Shown here one piece after another: positions 1 to 6,655 of a stretch of 20,647 bases of DNA. The first letter of the stretch is position 1. Every line of letters begins with the position of its first letter. The stretch lies in the IMG/VR virus record IMGVR_UViG_2585427793_000008, one strand, 5' to 3'. The stretch comes from a virus (Duplodnaviria > Heunggongvirae > Uroviricota > Caudoviricetes). Position numbers and translations under genes: made by a program. The notes beneath the pieces are model-generated. The model did no database searches, was not told the DNA's origin, and was given only the letters and a program-made list of their open reading frames with translations.

Positions 1-183
1 TCAGTTCTGCAGACACTGCCGAACACCGTCGACAATTTCACAGACCTGAGACGCGGTATCGAAAAGCTGGCGCGCCTTATCCAGGCTGACGCACCCCACC
101 AATAAAAAAGGCACCAGTATCGCTACCAGTGCCCGTTTCACCGCCGTTCGCGGCATTCTGTGTGTCCAGTGTTTTCGCGCCAT
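1..183 (-). CDS. Small lipoprotein, 60 aa (signal peptide plus lipobox L-V-G-C); o-spanin-like size but not proline-rich
   Basis: Complete ORF (stop at 1-3, ATG at 183..181). N-terminus MARKHW...LVPFLLVGCVS is a typical lipoprotein signal; two further Cys in the mature part. Preceded 2 nt upstream by the stop of a small TM ORF. Confidence 0.45.
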   Translation of the reverse strand: MARKHWTHRMPRTAVKRALVAILVPFLLVGCVSLDKARQLFDTASQVCEIVDGVRQCLQN

Positions 184-184
184 A

Positions 185-298
185 TCACCACCAACGCACA
201 GCCCAAATCAGAACAGCGACCGCCACAAGGCGAATTGCAAAGGCCGCAGCCCTTGTCAAATCAAGGCTCGCGGGAGTTTCCATTTCAATACCTTTCAT
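185..298 (-). CDS. Small hydrophobic protein, 37 aa (MKGIEMETPASLDLTRAAAFAIRLVAVAVLIWAVRWW)
   Basis: Hand-translated minus-strand ORF below the track size cut-off; one predicted TM helix; stop TGA 2 nt before the lipoprotein ATG. Weak SD (GAGG about 11 nt upstream). Confidence 0.25.
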   Translation of the reverse strand: MKGIEMETPASLDLTRAAAFAIRLVAVAVLIWAVRWW

Positions 299-389
299 AA
301 TGGACAACCTCAAAAAGAATCTTTTATACTTTCCCACGAGGATTTTCTCCCTACTCACTAATCACAATTTCCCCTTTGACGTGAAAACT

Positions 390-428
390 AAAAACCCCGG
401 ACTGTTCCCCCAGCCGGGGTTTTGTTTT
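390..428. terminator. Bidirectional intrinsic terminator-like hairpin downstream of endolysin
   Basis: A-run, CCCCGG (395-400) ... CCGGGG (414-419), then TTTTGTTTT (420-428); U-tract on both strands. Confidence 0.5.
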
Positions 429-430
429 AC

Positions 431-814
431 TTATCGCTTCAGCTGAAAGTGAGGTCCGTCTTTCAGCGTTTTCCAGTCCCCGCCCCATTCGATAGCGATC
501 CCCAGCTCTGCGGCAGCCTGCTTAAATGCCTGTGCGATTTTCTCGTACAGAGGCCACTCCCATGACACCTGACTGCCAATGTAGGCCACAACATCCACCG
601 CATCACCGGTCAGGTGGCGGCTGTTCATGGTCTGGCTTTTCCCTTCCGCAACCAGCTGTTTCTGGCGATACTTACTGCGCAGGCCTTCCGTAATACCGAA
701 ATCAACCTCCGTCAGCTCCAGCGCACGGCGAACTACAGCAACCAGCTGTGGTTTGACACCCTCCAGATTTTTTTCACTGCGACGGCTGAATCTGAATTTA
801 CCCGGCATATTCAC
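431..814 (-). CDS. Endolysin, peptidase M15 family (L-alanyl-D-glutamate / VanY-like metallopeptidase)
   Basis: Motif SRHLTGDAVD (SxHxxGxAxD) and C-terminal GGDW...DGPHFQ are typical Zn-binding motifs of M15 peptidases. GTG at 814 overlaps upstream stop (GTGA); alternative ATG at 808. Confidence 0.75.
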   Translation of the reverse strand: MNMPGKFRFSRRSEKNLEGVKPQLVAVVRRALELTEVDFGITEGLRSKYRQKQLVAEGKSQTMNSRHLTGDAVDVVAYIGSQVSWEWPLYEKIAQAFKQAAAELGIAIEWGGDWKTLKDGPHFQLKR

Positions 815-1086
815 CTCAACAATGGAAAGATTTTTGTGACGTTCCCGCGTGCGCGTATCACCAGCACGCAGAACAGCAGATTAAAAAACACTTCCAGCCA
901 GCCCGTTGCTAACGGGCGACCACACAGATAGCTGAGGGGCGCAAAGGCATACAGCAGCATCAGCAGCCAGGCCAGCCATGACACCAGCGGTTTATGTCTG
1001 GAATCACGGCGACGATAAAAAAAGAGCGTCAGCACGATAACCGTGCATAACGCCACATTCAGCAATCCGGGAAGGTTACTTAACAT
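811..1086 (-). CDS. Membrane protein, 91 aa, holin/antiholin-like partner in lysis cassette
   Basis: Start ATG 1086..1084 preceded by GGAGGAGG SD; multiple hydrophobic segments; stop overlaps endolysin start. Track ORF 811..1140 extends upstream from a non-SD start. Confidence 0.5.
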   Translation of the reverse strand: MLSNLPGLLNVALCTVIVLTLFFYRRRDSRHKPLVSWLAWLLMLLYAFAPLSYLCGRPLATGWLEVFFNLLFCVLVIRARGNVTKIFPLLR

Positions 1087-1468
1087 TGCCGCCTCCTCCA
1101 CCCCGCAGGCGGGAGAACACACCGGACACCAGCGATGCAATATCCTGCTGGTGGATGAACGAGAGAATCTTCACCGACACCACCGAGACCAGCACCGCGC
1201 AAAGCGCATCTGCTGATGTACCGTCATACCCTGTTTTTGATGCAATCCAGGCTGACAGCACACGCGCTCCCAGCACGCCGACAATAAACGACACCAGAAA
1301 ATGTGCCACCACGCGCCAGACTGAAAGTGACTGTGGCATCGTTGCCACAAATAACGCCCCGGCGAACGCGCCAAACACAATCCCGAAATCCATTCCGGTA
1401 AACAGCCCGAATACCGTCGCGCCACCCAGCGCCGCAGCCGTGCCGGAACCGGATAAGGGTTCAGACAT
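1076..1468 (-). CDS. Putative holin, 130 aa, multi-pass membrane protein
   Basis: ATG 1468..1466 with AGGAGG SD; hydrophobic glycine/alanine-rich TM segments; first gene of lysis cluster immediately upstream of endolysin. Confidence 0.55.
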   Translation of the reverse strand: MSEPLSGSGTAAALGGATVFGLFTGMDFGIVFGAFAGALFVATMPQSLSVWRVVAHFLVSFIVGVLGARVLSAWIASKTGYDGTSADALCAVLVSVVSVKILSFIHQQDIASLVSGVFSRLRGGGGGNVK

Positions 1469-1480
1469 ACTTCCTCCTGA

Positions 1481-1506
1481 AAATAAAAAAGGGCCACCAG
1501 CGACCC
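1481..1506 (-). terminator. Intrinsic terminator-like hairpin upstream of holin (minus strand); second hairpin at 1525-1546
   Basis: Minus strand reads GGGUCGCUGGUGGCCC followed by UUUUUUAUUUU; nearby perfect 8-bp stem AAGGCATC/GATGCCTT at 1525-1546. Confidence 0.4.
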
Positions 1507-1555
1507 GTAAAAAAACACCCCGTCAAAGGCATCCGCAGATGCCTTTTGTGTGATG

Positions 1556-1708
1556 TTATTCAGATTTACGCAGTAAAGGCCGGAGCACGACCAGCGCCAT
1601 CACCACCAGCACACCATCTGCCAGCACCGACATCAGTCGTCCGGTGAAATCAACCACCACTACCAGAAACAACAGGATGACAGCCAGCACAAGGCGCGCA
1701 CTTTTCAC
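1556..1708 (-). CDS. Small hydrophobic peptide, 50 aa (two predicted TM helices)
   Basis: Hand-translated: GTG at 1708..1706 overlaps TerB-like stop (GTGA); sequence KSARLVLAVILLFLVVVVDFTGRLMSVLADGVLVVMALVVLRPLLRKSE; stop TAA at 1558..1556. Below track size cut-off. Confidence 0.3.
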   Translation of the reverse strand: MKSARLVLAVILLFLVVVVDFTGRLMSVLADGVLVVMALVVLRPLLRKSE

Positions 1709-2130
1709 AGGTACTGCTCCAGCGGCAACTGCAGCGCCTGCGCAATTTTCTTCAGTTGCGCTTCTTCTTCCTGACCGATACCGTCCTGGTCAGCGATATC
1801 CAGACACAGGCACAGCACATTAACTGCATCATCAGTACCGGCAACATCAGCCAGCTGACGAAGAGCTTCGGCATTGGCAGAACGCGGCGACGCTTCATAA
1901 CGGGCGCGGATATTTGCACTCATTTGTGCAATCTCACCGGAGAACGGCGCAAAGGCAGGAAGTGCTGCAATGGTTTTTTCCAGTACCGCGATTTCTTTCG
2001 CGTCACAGGTGCCGTCAGCGTATGCAATGGAGTACGCGCCCCAGACGGTCGCCTCCACTGCGTCACGGTTCTCCATCTTCTTCACTTCGGTAATGGCCTT
2101 GCGGGTTTTCTTTTTGAAAATACCAAACAT
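1705..2130 (-). CDS. TerB-like (tellurite-resistance TerB domain) protein, 141 aa
   Basis: Two aDG...E-type segments (SIAYADGTCDAKEIAVLEK and LCLCLDIADQDGIGQEEEAQLKKIA) recalled as typical of the TerB family; ATG at 2130 with AAGGA SD. Confidence 0.5.
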   Translation of the reverse strand: MFGIFKKKTRKAITEVKKMENRDAVEATVWGAYSIAYADGTCDAKEIAVLEKTIAALPAFAPFSGEIAQMSANIRARYEASPRSANAEALRQLADVAGTDDAVNVLCLCLDIADQDGIGQEEEAQLKKIAQALQLPLEQYL

Positions 2131-2265
2131 CGTGACTTTTCCTTTTAGTGGGTGAGCCTGCGCCCGGGGGTGACCAGCCCACAGAGAAAGTCACACTGAC
2201 CATCCCGTAAGCTCATCCCTGAAAGGCTCTGTGGTTTTTTGATGTGCGCCGGGCGTGGCGCGGAT

Positions 2266-2292
2266 ATGAAAAAGGCCCGCCGAAGCGAGCCT
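2266..2292 (-). terminator. Intrinsic terminator downstream of the tRNA island (minus strand)
   Basis: Minus strand AGGCUCGC-UUCG-GCGGGCCU (8-bp stem incl. one G-U, UUCG tetraloop) followed by UUUUUCAUAUC. Confidence 0.6.
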
Positions 2293-2305
2293 GGAAAAAT
2301 AAGCG

Positions 2306-2382
2306 TGGCGCGTTGTACTGGATTCGAACCAGTGACCGATTGCTTAGAAGGCAATTGCTCTGTCCGGCTGAGCTAACAACGC
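2306..2382 (-). tRNA. argO: tRNA-Arg (anticodon UCU)
   Basis: Hand-folded cloverleaf: acceptor GCGTTGT/ACAACGC, D-arm GCTC/GAGC, anticodon stem ATTGC/GCAAT with loop CTTCTAA, T-arm ACTGG-TTCGAAT-CCAGT, 3-prime GCCA. Symbol by analogy to Stx-phage tRNA islands, recalled not searched. Confidence 0.9.
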
Positions 2383-2396
2383 ATAATGCAGATAAT

Positions 2397-2472
2397 GGAT
2401 TGCCATCGGGGACCCGAGCCCCACACAGCCAGTTTCGAAAGCAGGCGCTCTCTGCCGATGAGCTAATGGCGG
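2397..2472 (-). tRNA. tRNA-like sequence, Arg (UCG)-like anticodon loop, atypical; possibly degenerate
   Basis: D-arm GCTC/GAGC and loop TTTCGAA (anticodon TCG) present, but anticodon stem has 2 mismatches, acceptor stem 2 mismatches, T-loop CTCGGGT non-canonical, 3-prime end UCCA. Confidence 0.4.
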
Positions 2473-2479
2473 TATGTGA

Positions 2480-2555
2480 TGGTGGCCCTTGCTGGATTTG
2501 AACCAGCGACCTGGCGATTATGAGTCGCTCGCTCTCACCACTGAGCTAAAGGGCC
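2480..2555 (-). tRNA. ileZ: tRNA-Ile2/Met-type (anticodon CAU), ileX/ileZ-like
   Basis: Cloverleaf GGCCCTT...AAGGGCC acceptor, anticodon loop CTCATAA, T-arm GCTGG-TTCAAAT-CCAGC, 3-prime ACCA; closely resembles E. coli ileX from memory. Confidence 0.9.
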
Positions 2556-2604
2556 GGGAGCAGAATAATAATGGTGCGTAATTAATTCTGCAATCTCATC
2601 CGTT

Positions 2605-3654
2605 TCAAACGATTAAATCCTGAACTTCCCTGACTGTCTGCTCAAAACGTCCGGTCTCCAGCTCAACACCAATCGCACGACGCCCCAGTGCCATCGCCGC
2701 TTTTACCGTTGAACCTGAACCCATAAAAAAATCTGCAACCAGGTCTCCCGGACGACTGCTCGCGTTGATTATCTGCTGCAGCATTTCTGCCGGTTTTTCG
2801 CACGGATGTTTTCCTGGATAGTACTGCACCGGTTTATGCGTCCAGACATCGGTGTACGGAACCTGCGCCGTCACACCGAAATACCGCCGCAAATTTTTAT
2901 ATTCACTCAGCAGTTCCGTATACTGCCGGTTCAGCTCACTGTATGTGCTGACCAGCTGGTGGTGTGGCTTTTCCAGTTCCCCGCGCTGATGTTTTTCTGC
3001 CGCAACACGCGCAAACAACGCCTGCAATTTGTTGTAATCACCCTCGTTCGGTAACTGCCACTGACTGGTACCAAACCAGTGCGAAGCCATGTTTTTCTTT
3101 CCGGTGGCTTCCGCTATCTGTTTTGACGTTATTCCCAGTGATTTACGCGCATCACGAAAGTAAGAAATCAGCGGGGCCATGACGTGCTGTTTTAGCTCGC
3201 GCCCCTGTGCCACATAGCCATCATCTTTCGGGCGATACGGTCCCTGATAATGTTCTGCAAACAGAATGCGCTCTGTTGCCGGAAAATACGCCCGCAGACT
3301 TTCCTTATTGCACCCGTTCCAGCGTCCGGACGGCTTCGCCCAGATAATGTGGTTCAGCACATTAAAGCGCTCACGCATCATGATTTCGGTGTCAGATGCC
3401 AGGCGATGACCACAGAACAGGTAAAGACTTCCGGCAGGCTTCAGTCCCCGCCAGAACTGCGCCAGACACTGGTCCAGCCATTTCAGGTAATCATCGTCGC
3501 CCTTCCACTGGTTATCCCAGCCCTCGGGCTTCACTTTAAAGTATGGCGGGTCTGTGACTATCAGATCGACAGAATTTTCCGGTAAGGTCTGGATAAATTC
3601 CAGGCAATCAGCGTTGATTAACTCACAACTGGATATTTTTACAGTATTGGTCAT
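2605..3654 (-). CDS. Orphan DNA methyltransferase, beta-class (N6-adenine or N4-cytosine), 349 aa
   Basis: N-terminal SVDLIVTDPPY (motif IV) precedes C-terminal DFFMGSGST (motif I FxGxG); no adjacent restriction endonuclease gene. Confidence 0.85.
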   Translation of the reverse strand: MTNTVKISSCELINADCLEFIQTLPENSVDLIVTDPPYFKVKPEGWDNQWKGDDDYLKWLDQCLAQFWRGLKPAGSLYLFCGHRLASDTEIMMRERFNVLNHIIWAKPSGRWNGCNKESLRAYFPATERILFAEHYQGPYRPKDDGYVAQGRELKQHVMAPLISYFRDARKSLGITSKQIAEATGKKNMASHWFGTSQWQLPNEGDYNKLQALFARVAAEKHQRGELEKPHHQLVSTYSELNRQYTELLSEYKNLRRYFGVTAQVPYTDVWTHKPVQYYPGKHPCEKPAEMLQQIINASSRPGDLVADFFMGSGSTVKAAMALGRRAIGVELETGRFEQTVREVQDLIV

Positions 3655-3790
3655 AGATCAATAAGCACTTCTCTGATAGGCTCATACCGCTTTTGCGCAA
3701 AGCAGATGGGCCTGAGGTTTGCTTGTGACCCCAACGCATGAGCAGATGGCTGGCAGGTGCCGCTAACACCCACCAGCCGCCCATTACCAC

Positions 3791-3818
3791 AAATTAAAAA
3801 GCCTTCACTGCGGAAGGC
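3791..3818 (-). terminator. Intrinsic terminator-like hairpin overlapping the stop of the small ORF upstream of the methyltransferase
   Basis: Minus strand stem GCCTTC/GAAGGC (3801-3818) followed by UUUUUAAUUUG. Confidence 0.4.
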
Positions 3819-4012
3819 GTCTGTAACAACCGAACTGATAATCTGCCAGACCCGCCATAACAAGCTGAGTCAGTATTAACTGGCAGCGTTCGCGTGAAAG
3901 GTAAGTATTCTGCGCAATTTCCCCGACGGTCGCCGGTTCGGTGACGCTTAATTCATTAAACACCACTCTGGCGGTTTCGGTCATATCCTGCTGTTTTAGC
4001 ATGCCTTTTTCC
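3805..4012 (-). CDS. Small protein, 68 aa, unknown function (possible helix-turn-helix)
   Basis: ATG 4012..4010 with AGGGAAAAAGG SD region; lies between two minus-strand terminators. Confidence 0.4.
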
Positions 4013-4123
4013 CTTTTCTGGTTAACGTGACATACCAATACCTCTTGTCGAAAAAGCCAGCAAGCTGAAAGACCAGTATTCACAACAACCAGCGCGTTTA
4101 ATGTTCTGTGCCGTTTTTCAGGC

Positions 4124-4150
4124 ATAAAAAAACCCGCATAAAGCGGGTTC
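4124..4150 (-). terminator. Strong intrinsic terminator downstream of the ATPase/TOPRIM cassette (candidate tR-prime-like)
   Basis: Minus strand AACCCGC-UUUAU-GCGGGUU followed by UUUUUUUAUGCC. Confidence 0.6.
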
Positions 4151-4284
4151 TTTCAGGTGTCCATGTCTGCTATTCGCCTCGCGGTATAGCTTTGCGAAGC
4201 GTAGCTGGATTGAAACAGTTTATTGGCAAAAAATCAAGACATTTTACAAACAAAAACAATCAACTGAACAAAAAAGAAAATAAA

Positions 4285-4818
4285 TCATCTTGTTAACCTG
4301 AAATGTTTAGAAAAAGATGACTTAAAACTTGCAACAGGCTCCAATACAGTATGTAAATCTCTTGTAAACCACTTAGTTTCCTGCATGCCCATTTTCAGTA
4401 ACTTTGAAAGTTGATTGTTACAAGCAATAAAATCTCTCTTGAAATCATTTATACCCGATGTTTTTTTTGCACAGAACCCAGCAATTAGTTTTTTTACAGG
4501 AATTCCGCAACACCAGGCCAACTCCTCCTCAAAATTTCTTTTCTGCTGCAAAAGATAAACTTTATGCCCTCTGTTTTTAAGGAACTTTACATTTTCAATG
4601 AATCTTGCAGATTGCTCCACTTCATCACTATCAAAGACAATTAGTATATCACTTCCCTTCGGAATAGTAATCGCATAATTTCTTATGCTCTCTTGCCAAA
4701 AGTTTCTTTTTACAATTGATTTGGCATCAATAACTCTCTGTTGTTTCATCTTCTGAAAAAGAGAGTTTTCTGTTTCACCTTCGACAAAAATTATTCTTAT
4801 TTTAGACAACCCCGCCAT
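4285..4818 (-). CDS. Small TOPRIM-like protein, 177 aa (RloB/AbiLii- or DUF4276-like), second gene of candidate defence cassette
   Basis: N-terminal RIIFVEGETE (conserved Glu) and ILIVFDSDE (DxD) match the TOPRIM catalytic pattern; ATG overlaps ATPase stop (TGATG); AT-rich. Confidence 0.6.
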   Translation of the reverse strand: MAGLSKIRIIFVEGETENSLFQKMKQQRVIDAKSIVKRNFWQESIRNYAITIPKGSDILIVFDSDEVEQSARFIENVKFLKNRGHKVYLLQQKRNFEEELAWCCGIPVKKLIAGFCAKKTSGINDFKRDFIACNNQLSKLLKMGMQETKWFTRDLHTVLEPVASFKSSFSKHFRLTR

Positions 4819-6008
4819 CAGAGTAGCTCCGATACTAATGATGTGTCAGGTAAGACACCAAAGACATCTCTCTCAACAGCGTTTCGCATGCTACGGTCAT
4901 TTTTTTTAACAACTGAATTTGCTTCAACAAACTCCGAATAGTCTTTCGTTTTTTTAATAAAAATGAACGAGTGAACAGGCAGATCCAACTCAAAAATATC
5001 CATGTTATGCGTTGTATAGAAAAACTGAGTATTTTCTTTCAAATTAGATATAATCAGCGCCACAATCATACGCTCTAACTCTGAATGTGTATAAGCCAAT
5101 TTCTCGTCAAGAAAATAAGTCATTGATGGTATTAGAGATTGCTTACCTAGTCTTTCACAATCAGAGATAATAGCGCTTATAAAATGCGCTACCGTCACTG
5201 CCTCGTATGTTCCTCGAGAAAGACGGTCTGAGTTAATTATTTCACCTTTACTGGTAACGACAAGAGAATCAGAGTTTTTAAATTTAATCAGATAAACCGC
5301 AGATGATTTATTTTCATCCCCGTCACTTTCAGACTCCAGCATCTCGGTAACTCCTATAATACTTGAATCGAAAGTGCGAATTATCCTTTCAAGAATATTT
5401 TTATTCATTCCTGAAATTGCAGTGGTACTTTCTTTAGTTTCAGACAACAAATAGTACCATCCACCAAAAAACTTAAGTTGCTTGAAAAACTCCAATACAA
5501 CTGGTTCGCTATCAGTAGCTAGTTCCTGAAAAAAATATTCTGTATCTCCTGGGGCCCTTCCAGAAAAGAGTTGATTCAGTTTTTCTGTGGTTTTATAGCA
5601 AGAATCATTTAATGCTATTTGAACAAAACCATATTTAATTTCTTTGATTATGTGCGCTCCGCCTTCACTGGTAGCAAAGCGTACATACAAACGATGATGA
5701 AAATGTTCCTCCGTAGCAAAGTCTACTTCAAACGAAGCATCATTATTTTTATTATTCACTCGCAGATTACTCCGCAACTCTTTGGTTCTTAGAAACACCT
5801 GAATTCCACAAAGAATTCGCCCTAGTGACGTCTTACCTGAAGCATTTCCCCCCGTTATGATACAGACTTTTTTATAGTAAAATTTAGGCCGTCCAGCCAA
5901 AAACTCCCCATCAAGAGGCATGTTTACAGGTTTCCTTGGATAGGACAGGTTAAGCTCTGCATCCTCAAAAGCGTACAAATTGATAAATCTCAATCGTGTA
6001 AATATCAT
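4818..6008 (-). CDS. ABC-type (AAA_21/AAA_15-like) ATPase, about 396 aa, first gene of candidate defence cassette
   Basis: Walker A CIITGGNASGKTS, Walker B SMTYFLDE, H-loop FFYTTHNMD. Preferred start ATG 6008..6006 (GGAAG upstream; N-terminal RLRFINLYAFEDAEL strand typical of this ATPase class); ORF also open to ATG 6098, overlapping Q stop. Confidence 0.7.
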   Translation of the reverse strand: MIFTRLRFINLYAFEDAELNLSYPRKPVNMPLDGEFLAGRPKFYYKKVCIITGGNASGKTSLGRILCGIQVFLRTKELRSNLRVNNKNNDASFEVDFATEEHFHHRLYVRFATSEGGAHIIKEIKYGFVQIALNDSCYKTTEKLNQLFSGRAPGDTEYFFQELATDSEPVVLEFFKQLKFFGGWYYLLSETKESTTAISGMNKNILERIIRTFDSSIIGVTEMLESESDGDENKSSAVYLIKFKNSDSLVVTSKGEIINSDRLSRGTYEAVTVAHFISAIISDCERLGKQSLIPSMTYFLDEKLAYTHSELERMIVALIISNLKENTQFFYTTHNMDIFELDLPVHSFIFIKKTKDYSEFVEANSVVKKNDRSMRNAVERDVFGVLPDTSLVSELL

Positions 6009-6039
6009 TCTTATCTTCCATATGTTGGAACTTAACGTA

Positions 6040-6068
6040 AGTATTGTCCAGACCTTGATGAACGTCAA
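6040..6068 (-). promoter_or_regulatory. Candidate sigma70 promoter for the ATPase/TOPRIM cassette
   Basis: Minus strand TTGACG (6068..6063), 17-nt spacer, AATACT (6045..6040); just downstream of Q stop, about 30 nt upstream of ATG 6008. Confidence 0.3.
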
Positions 6069-6097
6069 CAAGATTGATAGCTGATGCACTTCTATCA

Positions 6098-6655
6098 TCA
6101 GTTATCAGAAAAGCACCGAAGTGCCACGCACATTGGAAGGAAAAGCATGGTTTCAGCCATCGCCAACCAAACATCAATGCGATTTCTACAAGTTTTCAGG
6201 CTCCAGTCAGGGTGATTCTTTTTTAACTGTTCTGCCATTTTCAGCTTGCTCATTCCCAGCCCTTCATATCTTTGTCGGAGGATACAAATCAATCCCGGAT
6301 GCTCTGCCAACACTTCACTAATTACCCGATCGATACATAACGCCTCGGCATCAGTACAATAAGCCAGCCCGCTCTTTTGCTTGCTGTTGATCATCTCACG
6401 CAAAAACGCTTCCAGCTCAGTTTTATCAATCCCTGATTTTTTTATTCTGCGCAGAGCTTCATTGATCGCAGTTTTTGTAAGTGTTTTGGATGCCAGCAAC
6501 TGATTGAACATATTTCCTGGTTTGCCACCACCTATGTACGACCAACGCCCCCACATCCGTAATTTCCCCTGGATCCAGACGGCTTCCAGCGTTTTTAGAC
6601 GTAAATGCTCGCCGCTTTTGCCTGTAATTTCCGGGTATATCATATTTACGATCAC
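6098..6655 (-). CDS. Q-like late antiterminator (phage 82 / quuD-type family)
   Basis: WGRW motif near N-terminus, CTDAEALCIDRV and RQRYEGLGMSKLKMAEQL segments resemble recalled Q82-type antiterminators; position after RusA and before late region. GTG 6655 overlaps RusA stop; alternative ATG 6643. Confidence 0.5.
   Translation of the reverse strand: MIVNMIYPEITGKSGEHLRLKTLEAVWIQGKLRMWGRWSYIGGGKPGNMFNQLLASKTLTKTAINEALRRIKKSGIDKTELEAFLREMINSKQKSGLAYCTDAEALCIDRVISEVLAEHPGLICILRQRYEGLGMSKLKMAEQLKKNHPDWSLKTCRNRIDVWLAMAETMLFLPMCVALRCFSDN

Follow-up and report, generated by a model that had tools for sequence, protein, structure and literature searches.

What a pair of very small genes contributes to a temperate phage, and at which stage of the phage's life it is expressed, is the question raised by a locus of a Caudoviricetes virus in IMG/VR (record IMGVR_UViG_2585427793_000008; 20,647 nucleotides, the whole of which is called the window here). 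Two overlapping genes of its minus strand, tciA and tciB, encode an acidic protein of the TerB fold and a peptide of 50 residues with two hydrophobic segments. The pair lies 3' of a Q-type antiterminator gene and a tRNA island and 5' of the holin genes, the position at which Stx phages carry stxAB. An initial annotation, made without database searches, had already described the two products, their position between tRNAs and holin at the Stx-type toxin locus, and terminators on both flanks, and all of this stands; its further suggestion, of a moron with possible expression in the lysogen, is not supported. The identity of the cassette and its architecture are nearly certain, expression within the late transcript is probable, and the physiological role proposed below is speculative. 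Added here to the earlier description are the link to the tciAB genes of phage P1, evidence from two TerB clades that the two products are partners, and a leader RNA, apparently undescribed, whose structure is supported by covariation and which other accessory genes of the late region share.

The cassette and its relation to phage P1 tciAB

Comparison with phage P1 indicates that the gene pair, here in an E. coli prophage, is the lambdoid-prophage version of P1 tciA and tciB, a family already annotated. BLASTP identity to the P1 proteins is 87% for TciA and 47% for TciB; PHROGs assigns TciA to phrog_632 ('tellurite resistance', E=1e-64) and TciB to phrog_1470 ('TciB-like', E=9e-23), and the RefSeq labels in E. 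coli are 'tellurite resistance TerB family protein' and 'DUF3927 family protein'. TciA has 141 residues in both phages, and TciB has 50 here as against 54 in P1; the gene order is the same, as is the overlap of stop and start codons (GTGA here, TGATG in P1), and both cassettes adjoin phage tRNA genes downstream of a DNA methyltransferase gene (dmt in P1). The P1 genes tciA-tciB-tciC (P1_gp074-076) each overlap the next by one base and lie between tRNA genes in the interval from the C1-controlled Pban promoter to ban. Unlike P1, the window has no tciC, and a tblastn search with P1 TciC found matches only in P1-like loci (L001, L011). The P1 cassette, moreover, belongs to the C1-repressed early ban operon and is without a structured leader, whereas that of the window immediately precedes the lysis genes of the late region. 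The tci names were given in the P1 annotation 'by homology' only. P1 tciABC was found to be non-essential in a CRISPRi screen (PMC10695390), and a preprint places the P1 tci genes among those mis-timed in an hfq mutant.

A 901-bp query from the locus was covered to at least 80% in 155 of 5,426 complete E. coli genomes, many of them enterotoxigenic strains, and some part of it was matched in 1,091, about a fifth; the cassette was also found in 386 IMG/VR viral contigs and in many Enterobacterales. The loci examined for gene order and conservation numbered 100 and comprise the window, P1, annotated records, 17 GTDB species genomes and 80 IMG/VR contigs. A few relatives carry unexpected names: the 'Actinobacillus phage vB_Apl-pPE4' (L002, PP818812.1) shares 94-98% identity with the E. 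coli prophage region studied here, and tciA occurs at 82-94% identity in contigs labelled as a Bacillota metagenome-assembled genome, Pseudomonas lundensis, Acinetobacter idrijaensis and Kocuria sabuli (L005, L009, L019, L020). These records are probably enterobacterial prophage DNA under the names of other organisms.

TciA, a TerB-fold protein

The hidden Markov model search that the initial annotation had proposed as a check shows that TciA matches the Pfam TerB family (PF05099) over two stretches, with a score of 31.6 bits (cut-off 24.4; E=2e-7). The two aDG...E segments, YADGTCDAKE (residues 37-46) and IADQDGIGQEEE (residues 112-123), are invariant or nearly so in homologues, as are the motif residues D39, G40, D43, E46, D111, D114, D116, G117 and E122; in TerB domains such acidic motifs have been proposed to bind a cation. 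An AlphaFold2 model computed from a 31-sequence alignment consists of six helices (pLDDT 86, pTM 0.82), which is the small all-helical fold of TerB, and a structure bearing the TerB name matches this predicted helical fold. The description of a 141-residue TerB-like protein is thus borne out by both sequence and predicted fold. A search of solved structures with a profile of the TciA alignment returned nothing meaningful, and among NCBIfam models the sole match was a sub-threshold one to DjlA, over the TerB-like region of that protein.

The first 20 residues of TciA (MFGIFKKKTRKAITEVKKME; MFGIFKKKTRK...) are disordered in the model and near-invariant, and they are basic and hydrophobic, with an isoelectric point of 10.3 as against 4.2 for the remainder of the protein. 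Such a tail may bind the membrane or a partner, and it probably keeps TciA at the cytoplasmic face of the inner membrane. The ratio of nonsynonymous to synonymous substitution (dN/dS, Nei-Gojobori) is about 0.05 for tciA.

A second clade of TerB proteins, here called TciA2, has 142-143 residues, is 43% identical to TciA and scores 60.2 bits against Pfam TerB. TciA2 shares with TciA the N-terminal MFGIFKKK tail, the leader described below and an overlapping DUF3927 partner gene. It is carried by the IMG/VR contigs L198, L205, L206, L208, L215, L254 and others, and accounts for roughly one in two of the sampled viral contigs that bear the leader.

TciB and the coupling of the two genes

TciB matches the Pfam family DUF3927 (PF13064) with 49.7 bits against a cut-off of 25. 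Its hydropathy profile shows two hydrophobic segments flanking a DFTGR turn, with basic ends, and there is a conserved Asp in the second segment; the peptide is probably a hairpin in the inner membrane. Wherever tciA is complete, and down to 67% TciA identity, practically all loci have an open reading frame (ORF) of about 50 codons, with two hydrophobic segments, that begins at the tciA stop codon or across it; among the 100 loci one that is disrupted (L031) and one that is truncated (L054) are the exceptions. The junction reads GTGA, TGATG or TAATG, the start codon of tciB is GTG, ATG or TTG, and when the search is made from the TciB side TciA is immediately upstream in 79 of 79 loci. The frame is open in 45 distinct protein versions at a synonymous divergence (dS) above 1, with a dN/dS of about 0.40 by the same method; two motifs, VDFT[GS] and S.LADG, do not vary, and a C-proximal Pro is retained. 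Because frame, motifs and start/stop overlap are all conserved, the small ORF can be taken as a real conserved gene, as the initial annotation had supposed for its GTG-initiated peptide with two transmembrane segments, and both genes are under purifying selection.

Among 1.84 billion cluster representatives a profile search found only 89 relatives of TciB, nearly all of them stand-alone proteins of 40-65 residues, the few longer ones being frameshifted or chimeric calls; DUF3927 appears to be a small family confined to Enterobacterales. Fusions, of TerB to DUF3927 or otherwise, that might have given a clue to function (P0060, P0252, P0260, P0286) were rejected as single-member, frameshifted or chimeric calls. 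MAFFT aligned the invariant LADG in the second hydrophobic segment of TciB onto the YADG of TciA, which is probably a coincidence.

Translation of tciB is coupled to that of tciA at the overlapping stop and start codons, which suggests that TciA and TciB are made together. That two diverged TerB lineages, TciA and TciA2, keep the same small partner is good evidence that the two proteins would also work together.

A structured leader RNA that pairs the tciA ribosome-binding site

The interval of about 140 nucleotides between the upstream terminator and the tciA start codon is a conserved structured RNA, supported by covariation, in which the Shine-Dalgarno (SD) sequence of tciA is paired. Its helices are H0 (GCGCC/GGCGC), P2 (CCACAGAG/CUCUGUGG), an anti-SD helix in which CCUUU pairs with the SD sequence AAAGG, P1 (GGAUGAGC/GCUCACC) and a hairpin P3; of these P2 crosses both P1 and the anti-SD:SD helix. 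The predicted fold is more stable than that of shuffled sequences (z = -2.9). When the upstream regions of related prophages are aligned, homology starts at or just past the upstream terminator and continues nearly unchanged up to the ATG, and the terminator hairpin itself is kept in position despite different sequences, with compensatory changes. Close copies of the leader vary too little to be informative, and RNAalifold gave them a covariation term of zero.

More distant copies were reached with a covariance model built from 20 leaders, and covariation was measured on a 24-sequence alignment fitted to that model. Such fitting favours the structure, and the shuffled and slid controls are still far lower: standard pairs are formed in 95.8% of the cells observed, 87% of those shuffled and 30-50% of those slid, pairs changed on both sides number 15 of 24 (about 6 shuffled, 1-8 slid), and cells changed on both sides number 39 (7.4 ± 2.3 shuffled, 1-14 slid). 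Both-side changes occur in 7 of the 9 pairs of P1, and the anti-SD:SD helix is formed in 99% of cells. In a second model, with P2 in place of P1, seven of the eight P2 pairs show both-side changes and 94% of cells are paired, and the position of P2 is kept across seven different sequence versions. Given that P1 and the SD helix are both crossed by P2, the leader would form a pseudoknot or else alternate, as a switch, between two folds, with both folds under selection, and it appears to lock the translation of tciA.

The leader is not peculiar to tciA. An exact-pattern scan of viral contigs found it also in front of the TciA2 clade, and in one locus a diverged copy precedes an unrelated gene. 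The covariance model in addition detected diverged second copies in the same prophages, a few kilobases downstream and past the lysis cassette. An intrinsic terminator hairpin precedes nearly all of the second copies, and each ends a few bases beyond the ATG of an accessory gene that differs from copy to copy: ANT/KilAC-Rha antirepressor-like, KilA-N, or an unknown protein of 199-262 residues. The element is present in 158 complete E. coli genomes, in up to five places per genome, and in isolated Escherichia and Klebsiella phages, where no RNA feature is annotated. It is absent from P1, from the distant loci and from the copies of the cassette in the early-left arm described below. Rfam gave nothing at E<=10 for the body of the leader, only weak sub-threshold matches centred on the terminator and tRNA, and likewise no match for a second leader copy.

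Two other candidate features were rejected. Small ORFs within it, one of 23 codons and one of 46 residues (2203..2063), are broken between close relatives by indels in the CACCCCCGGG tract. The small RNAs PasA and PasC have been reported beside TerB and holin genes in prophages of enteropathogenic E. coli; the window contains none of their probe sequences, and the PasA of strain E2348/69 adjoins a different type of holin.

Probable expression from the late transcript

Gene order along the one strand is Q, terminators, tRNAs, tciAB and holins. A strong hairpin (AACCCGC-TTTAT-GCGGGTT followed by T5; about 4126-4215, minus strand) stands in the 160-bp gap past the AbiL-like genes, and the hairpin with its T-run ends at the ATG (4125) of a 106-residue ORF, orf106. 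This hairpin, at about 4149..4126, is not in the list returned by the terminator scan, and it resembles the pR'-tR' arrangement of late promoter and terminator. Further terminators, at 3818..3801 and on both sides of the cassette, lie beyond it. By analogy with lambda and the Stx phages, everything from this hairpin to the lysis genes, tciAB included, would be read solely by Q-modified polymerase. A consensus scan of the minus strand from 1 to 4500 found no sigma-70-like promoter, a crude test in that the presumed late promoter was missed as well, and inspection of the leader by eye gave no convincing sigma-70, sigma-E, sigma-32 or sigma-54 site.

Base composition also bears on whether the cassette is a moron, a self-contained unit with promoter and terminator of its own that is expressed from the prophage and whose composition is unlike that of the flanking phage genes. 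The G+C content is 53.5% for tciA and 54.2% for tciB, as against 54-58% for the holin and endolysin genes and 34-37% for the AbiL-like cargo, which illustrates the composition of a recent acquisition at this locus; tciAB resembles its flanks.

The cassette recurs in other surroundings. It is 87-94 bp 5' of a PF16931 holin gene in 64 of the 100 loci (88 bp in the window). In Enterobacter and Yersinia prophages it lies in the early-left arm between a CI-type repressor gene and the integrase gene, on the strand of those two genes, beside YdfE, KilA-N and Lambda_Kil genes. The late region, the early-left arm and the P1 ban operon would be three kinds of lytic-cycle transcription unit, and their occupation makes lysogenic conversion by genes expressed in the lysogen less likely, though still conceivable. 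The initial annotation's proposal of a moron expressed in the lysogen accordingly finds no support, in view of the upstream terminator, the failure to find a promoter (a weak negative), the leader that pairs the SD sequence, a G+C content like that of the lysis genes, and relatives in what appear to be lytic-cycle operons. In its site, 3' of Q and an ileZ-argN-argO-like tRNA island and 5' of a holin gene, the cassette is comparable to cargo of the stxAB type, and both probably depend on Q to be read through terminators. Unlike stxAB, tciAB encodes no toxin, has the G+C content of the phage core and is preceded by a structured leader that sequesters the SD sequence.

Proposed role of the TciA-TciB pair

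In the role that we favour, tciAB would have no promoter of its own and would be transcribed solely within the Q-antiterminated late transcript, like stx in Stx phages. The structured leader would hold the tciA ribosome-binding site paired, so that translation would require the leader to open; TciB would then be placed in the inner membrane and TciA would act on its cytoplasmic side. The two would form a membrane-associated TerB module that during lytic growth monitors or stabilises the energised inner membrane when it is challenged from outside, for example by superinfecting phage or pore-forming colicins, and that thereby keeps the neighbouring holins from firing prematurely. This role is proposed because TerB proteins have been associated with the membrane and with phage and colicin phenotypes, and because the genes stand before holins that are sensitive to the proton motive force. 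Membrane association of TerB proteins is reported, as cited in two preprints (bioRxiv 10.1101/2022.05.11.491447; 10.1101/2025.09.30.679545). Taken as a whole, a late-expressed membrane TerB module is a tentative reading, which we would rate slightly short of an even chance.

Several observations weigh against it. The cassette also occurs far from lysis genes, in P1 and in the early-left arm, and a role in holin timing would thus not be general. TerB domains are found in proven anti-phage systems, which favours a function in defence. A weak or activator-dependent tciA promoter is possible, given that the crude consensus scan did not pick up the presumed late promoter either. Conservation is much stronger in TciA than in TciB (dN/dS 0.05 as against 0.4), and a tight, specific complex should constrain TciB more. 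Prophage PP2 of E. coli E2348/69 has an orphan DUF3927 gene with neither a TerB gene nor a tciA remnant, and peptides of the TciB type may accordingly act alone. The functional data found for the family, finally, are limited to the non-essentiality of P1 tciABC (PMC10695390). The orphan gene itself (L107/L108; NC_011601, 740958-741116) encodes 52 residues from a TTG start; it follows Q and a gene for a 247-residue unknown protein, and is upstream of a nanS-type esterase gene, the PasA small RNA locus and a different type of holin.

A bolder extension, possible though on the unlikely side, is that the leader represents an undescribed class of cis-regulatory RNA of the lambdoid prophages of Enterobacterales, a pseudoknot or switch that follows a terminator and leaves late accessory genes untranslated until a signal is received, with TciA-TciB as a minimal TerB module for 'membrane surveillance'. 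Genes under such control could include the two TerB clades, the ANT/Rha-type antirepressor-like genes, KilA-N and others, and possible signals are temperature, a ligand, or a factor supplied by phage or host.

The gene pair in itself is ordinary, being annotated and widespread, and its function is the real gap. TerB domains belong to several proven anti-phage systems, and there is hardly a simpler one in a tractable host than this phage version, which comprises two genes and 191 residues; if the reading of a minimal TerB module is true, the biochemical role of the TerB domain becomes directly testable in E. coli. The leader RNA could matter most: it has two crossing helices that both covary and an SD helix that is kept nearly without exception, it matches no Rfam family, and it is reused before unrelated accessory genes. 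Were it a switch, it would show translational control by temperate phages of late-operon cargo, in the region that holds toxin genes such as stx.

Alternative explanations

A stress- or defence-related function, which the initial annotation had allowed for, remains a fair suggestion, and the rival that survives best is a module for defence or superinfection exclusion expressed in the lysogen. TciA would be its TerB sensor and TciB an abortive effector that depolarises the membrane, in the manner of lambda RexA/RexB or of Dionysus. Proteins with TerB domains belong to the validated systems Bunzi, Shango and Dionysus (DinA/DinB/DinC), in which a TerB-like protein is encoded beside a membrane protein and membrane surveillance is the proposed logic, and in Dionysus the TerB-like DinB is paired with DinC, a pore-forming toxin of four transmembrane segments. 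The cassette also shares a cargo-rich stretch with an AbiL-like pair and an orphan methyltransferase gene; its Enterobacter and Yersinia copies are on the repressor side of the immunity region, the home of rexAB-type genes; and the orphan DUF3927 gene would allow the peptide to act on its own. Against this, no PADLOC model was matched by TciA or TciB at E<=0.01, those of Bunzi and Shango among them, and no Dionysus match was obtained in PADLOC-DB 2.0.0 (2023), for which the presence of a Dionysus model was not checked. Unlike these systems, tciAB amounts to 191 residues encoded by two genes, lacks any ATPase, helicase, MAEBL or 4-TM toxin component, and is carried in what appear to be lytic-cycle operons of phages and not in defence islands. 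The terminator and SD-sequestering leader, the failure to find a promoter, a G+C content like that of phage core genes and unlike that of the AbiL-like cargo, and the location of the P1 copies in the C1-repressed ban operon all speak against expression in the lysogen. Such a defence module is the main rival, though an unlikely explanation.

A role in the timing of lysis is improbable. TciB would be antiholin-like or modulate holins, with TciA as its cytoplasmic regulator, and the targets would be the two holins encoded downstream. The close spacing before the PF16931 holin gene in 64 of the 100 loci fits such a role, as do the size of TciB and its two hydrophobic segments, which are those of class II holins and antiholins, and the conserved Asp in the second. 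TciB matches no holin or antiholin family in Pfam or PHROGs, however, its matches being DUF3927 and PHROG 1470 only; P1 and the early-left operons carry the same cassette at a distance from lysis genes; and about a third of the late-region copies are followed by something other than a PF16931 holin gene.

Resistance to tellurite, colicins or both by lysogenic conversion, with TciA as the TerB equivalent of a ter operon, is more doubtful still. The ter cluster (terZABCDE; IncHI2 plasmids, E. coli O157, Klebsiella) confers tellurite resistance, phage inhibition and colicin resistance, and TciA shares with its TerB the Pfam family, the (predicted) helical fold and the aDG...E motifs, as reflected in database names such as 'tellurite/colicin resistance protein'. 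These names derive from homology alone, as in the P1 annotation, and a literature search found no paper in which TciA was tested for tellurite or colicin resistance. Unlike ter-cluster TerB, TciA has tRNA, holin, methyltransferase and Q genes for neighbours and no ter partner genes nearby, terC, terD, terE, terZ and terA being absent from the window and from every related locus examined. The TerB profile match of TciA is weak and split, and its partner is a DUF3927 peptide, which to our knowledge is not part of the ter cluster.

That the small ORF is no gene, merely an accidental frame in a hydrophobic-looking 3' untranslated region, could be argued from its 50 codons, its GTG start and the lack of an NCBIfam model, but is effectively refuted by conservation, as judged from the frame kept open at a synonymous divergence above 1, the invariant motifs, a dN/dS of about 0.4, an overlap that persists while the start codon switches, and a Pfam family of its own with nearly all of its 89 cluster representatives standing alone.

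Genes and signals around the cassette

The coordinates of the cassette and its surroundings are collected in Table 1.

Table 1. Features of the tciAB region (window positions unless another locus is named) and the evidence for each
Feature	Position	Strand	Evidence and remarks
tciA	2130..1705	minus	141-residue ORF, ATG start; acidic, TerB fold
tciB	1708..1556	minus	50-residue ORF, GTG start within GTGA; DUF3927, two hydrophobic segments
Structured 5' leader of tciA	2131..2266	minus	covariance model match 2123..2266, 155.6 bits
Intrinsic terminator 5' of tciA-tciB	2292..2266	minus	terminator scan; hairpin 2292..2273 with 8-bp GC-rich stem and UUCG loop, then T-run
tRNA island 5' of tciAB	2555..2306	minus	ARAGORN: Met-CAT/Ile-type, Arg-TCG, Arg-TCT; all three confirmed by Rfam
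tciB-holin spacer	1485..1546	minus	two hairpins, then holin SD (AGGAGG) and ATG at 1468
Second spacer hairpin	1546..1525	minus	read by eye in the sequence
Spacer hairpin with T6 run	1506..1491	minus	terminator scan
Holin, PF16931 (Phage_holin_8)	1468..1076	minus	Pfam and PHROG
3TM holin, PF05449	1140..811	minus	Pfam and PHROG
M15 endolysin	814..431	minus	Pfam and PHROG
Orphan type II N6/N4 DNA methyltransferase	2605-3654	minus	PF01555, E=2e-43; PADLOC MTase_II, E=1.5e-159
AbiL-like gene pair	4285-6098	minus	PADLOC AbiLi, E=9.6e-26; AbiLii, E=0.0017
Q-type antiterminator (DUF1133/Phage_antitermQ)	6655..6098	minus	upstream of tciAB
Leader copies elsewhere	L206:8852-8998; L053:8095-8238; L017:11451-11575; L002:2816-2958; L007:10365-10488; L006:8478-8601; L018:7133-7273	minus for L002	

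The first tRNA of the island is annotated in RefSeq as tRNA-Ile in a near-identical prophage. Among near-identical prophages the island itself changes, being Met/Ile-Arg-Arg, Thr-Gly, Met-Lys-Thr-Gly-Val or none, and the block of leader, tciAB and holin is constant. Farther upstream on the same strand are the DNA methyltransferase gene, orf106, the AbiL-like pair and the Q-type antiterminator gene. The methyltransferase gene lies just 5' of the tRNA island with no restriction gene adjacent, and P1 also has dmt upstream of its tRNA-tci region. The AbiL-like genes, the ATPase of which is of the AAA_15 type, are immediately 3' of Q, with one-base overlaps of start and stop at 6098 and 4818, and their G+C content of 34-37% compares with about 54% in the neighbouring phage genes. 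Related prophages lack the AbiL-like pair, and in them orf106 comes straight after Q.

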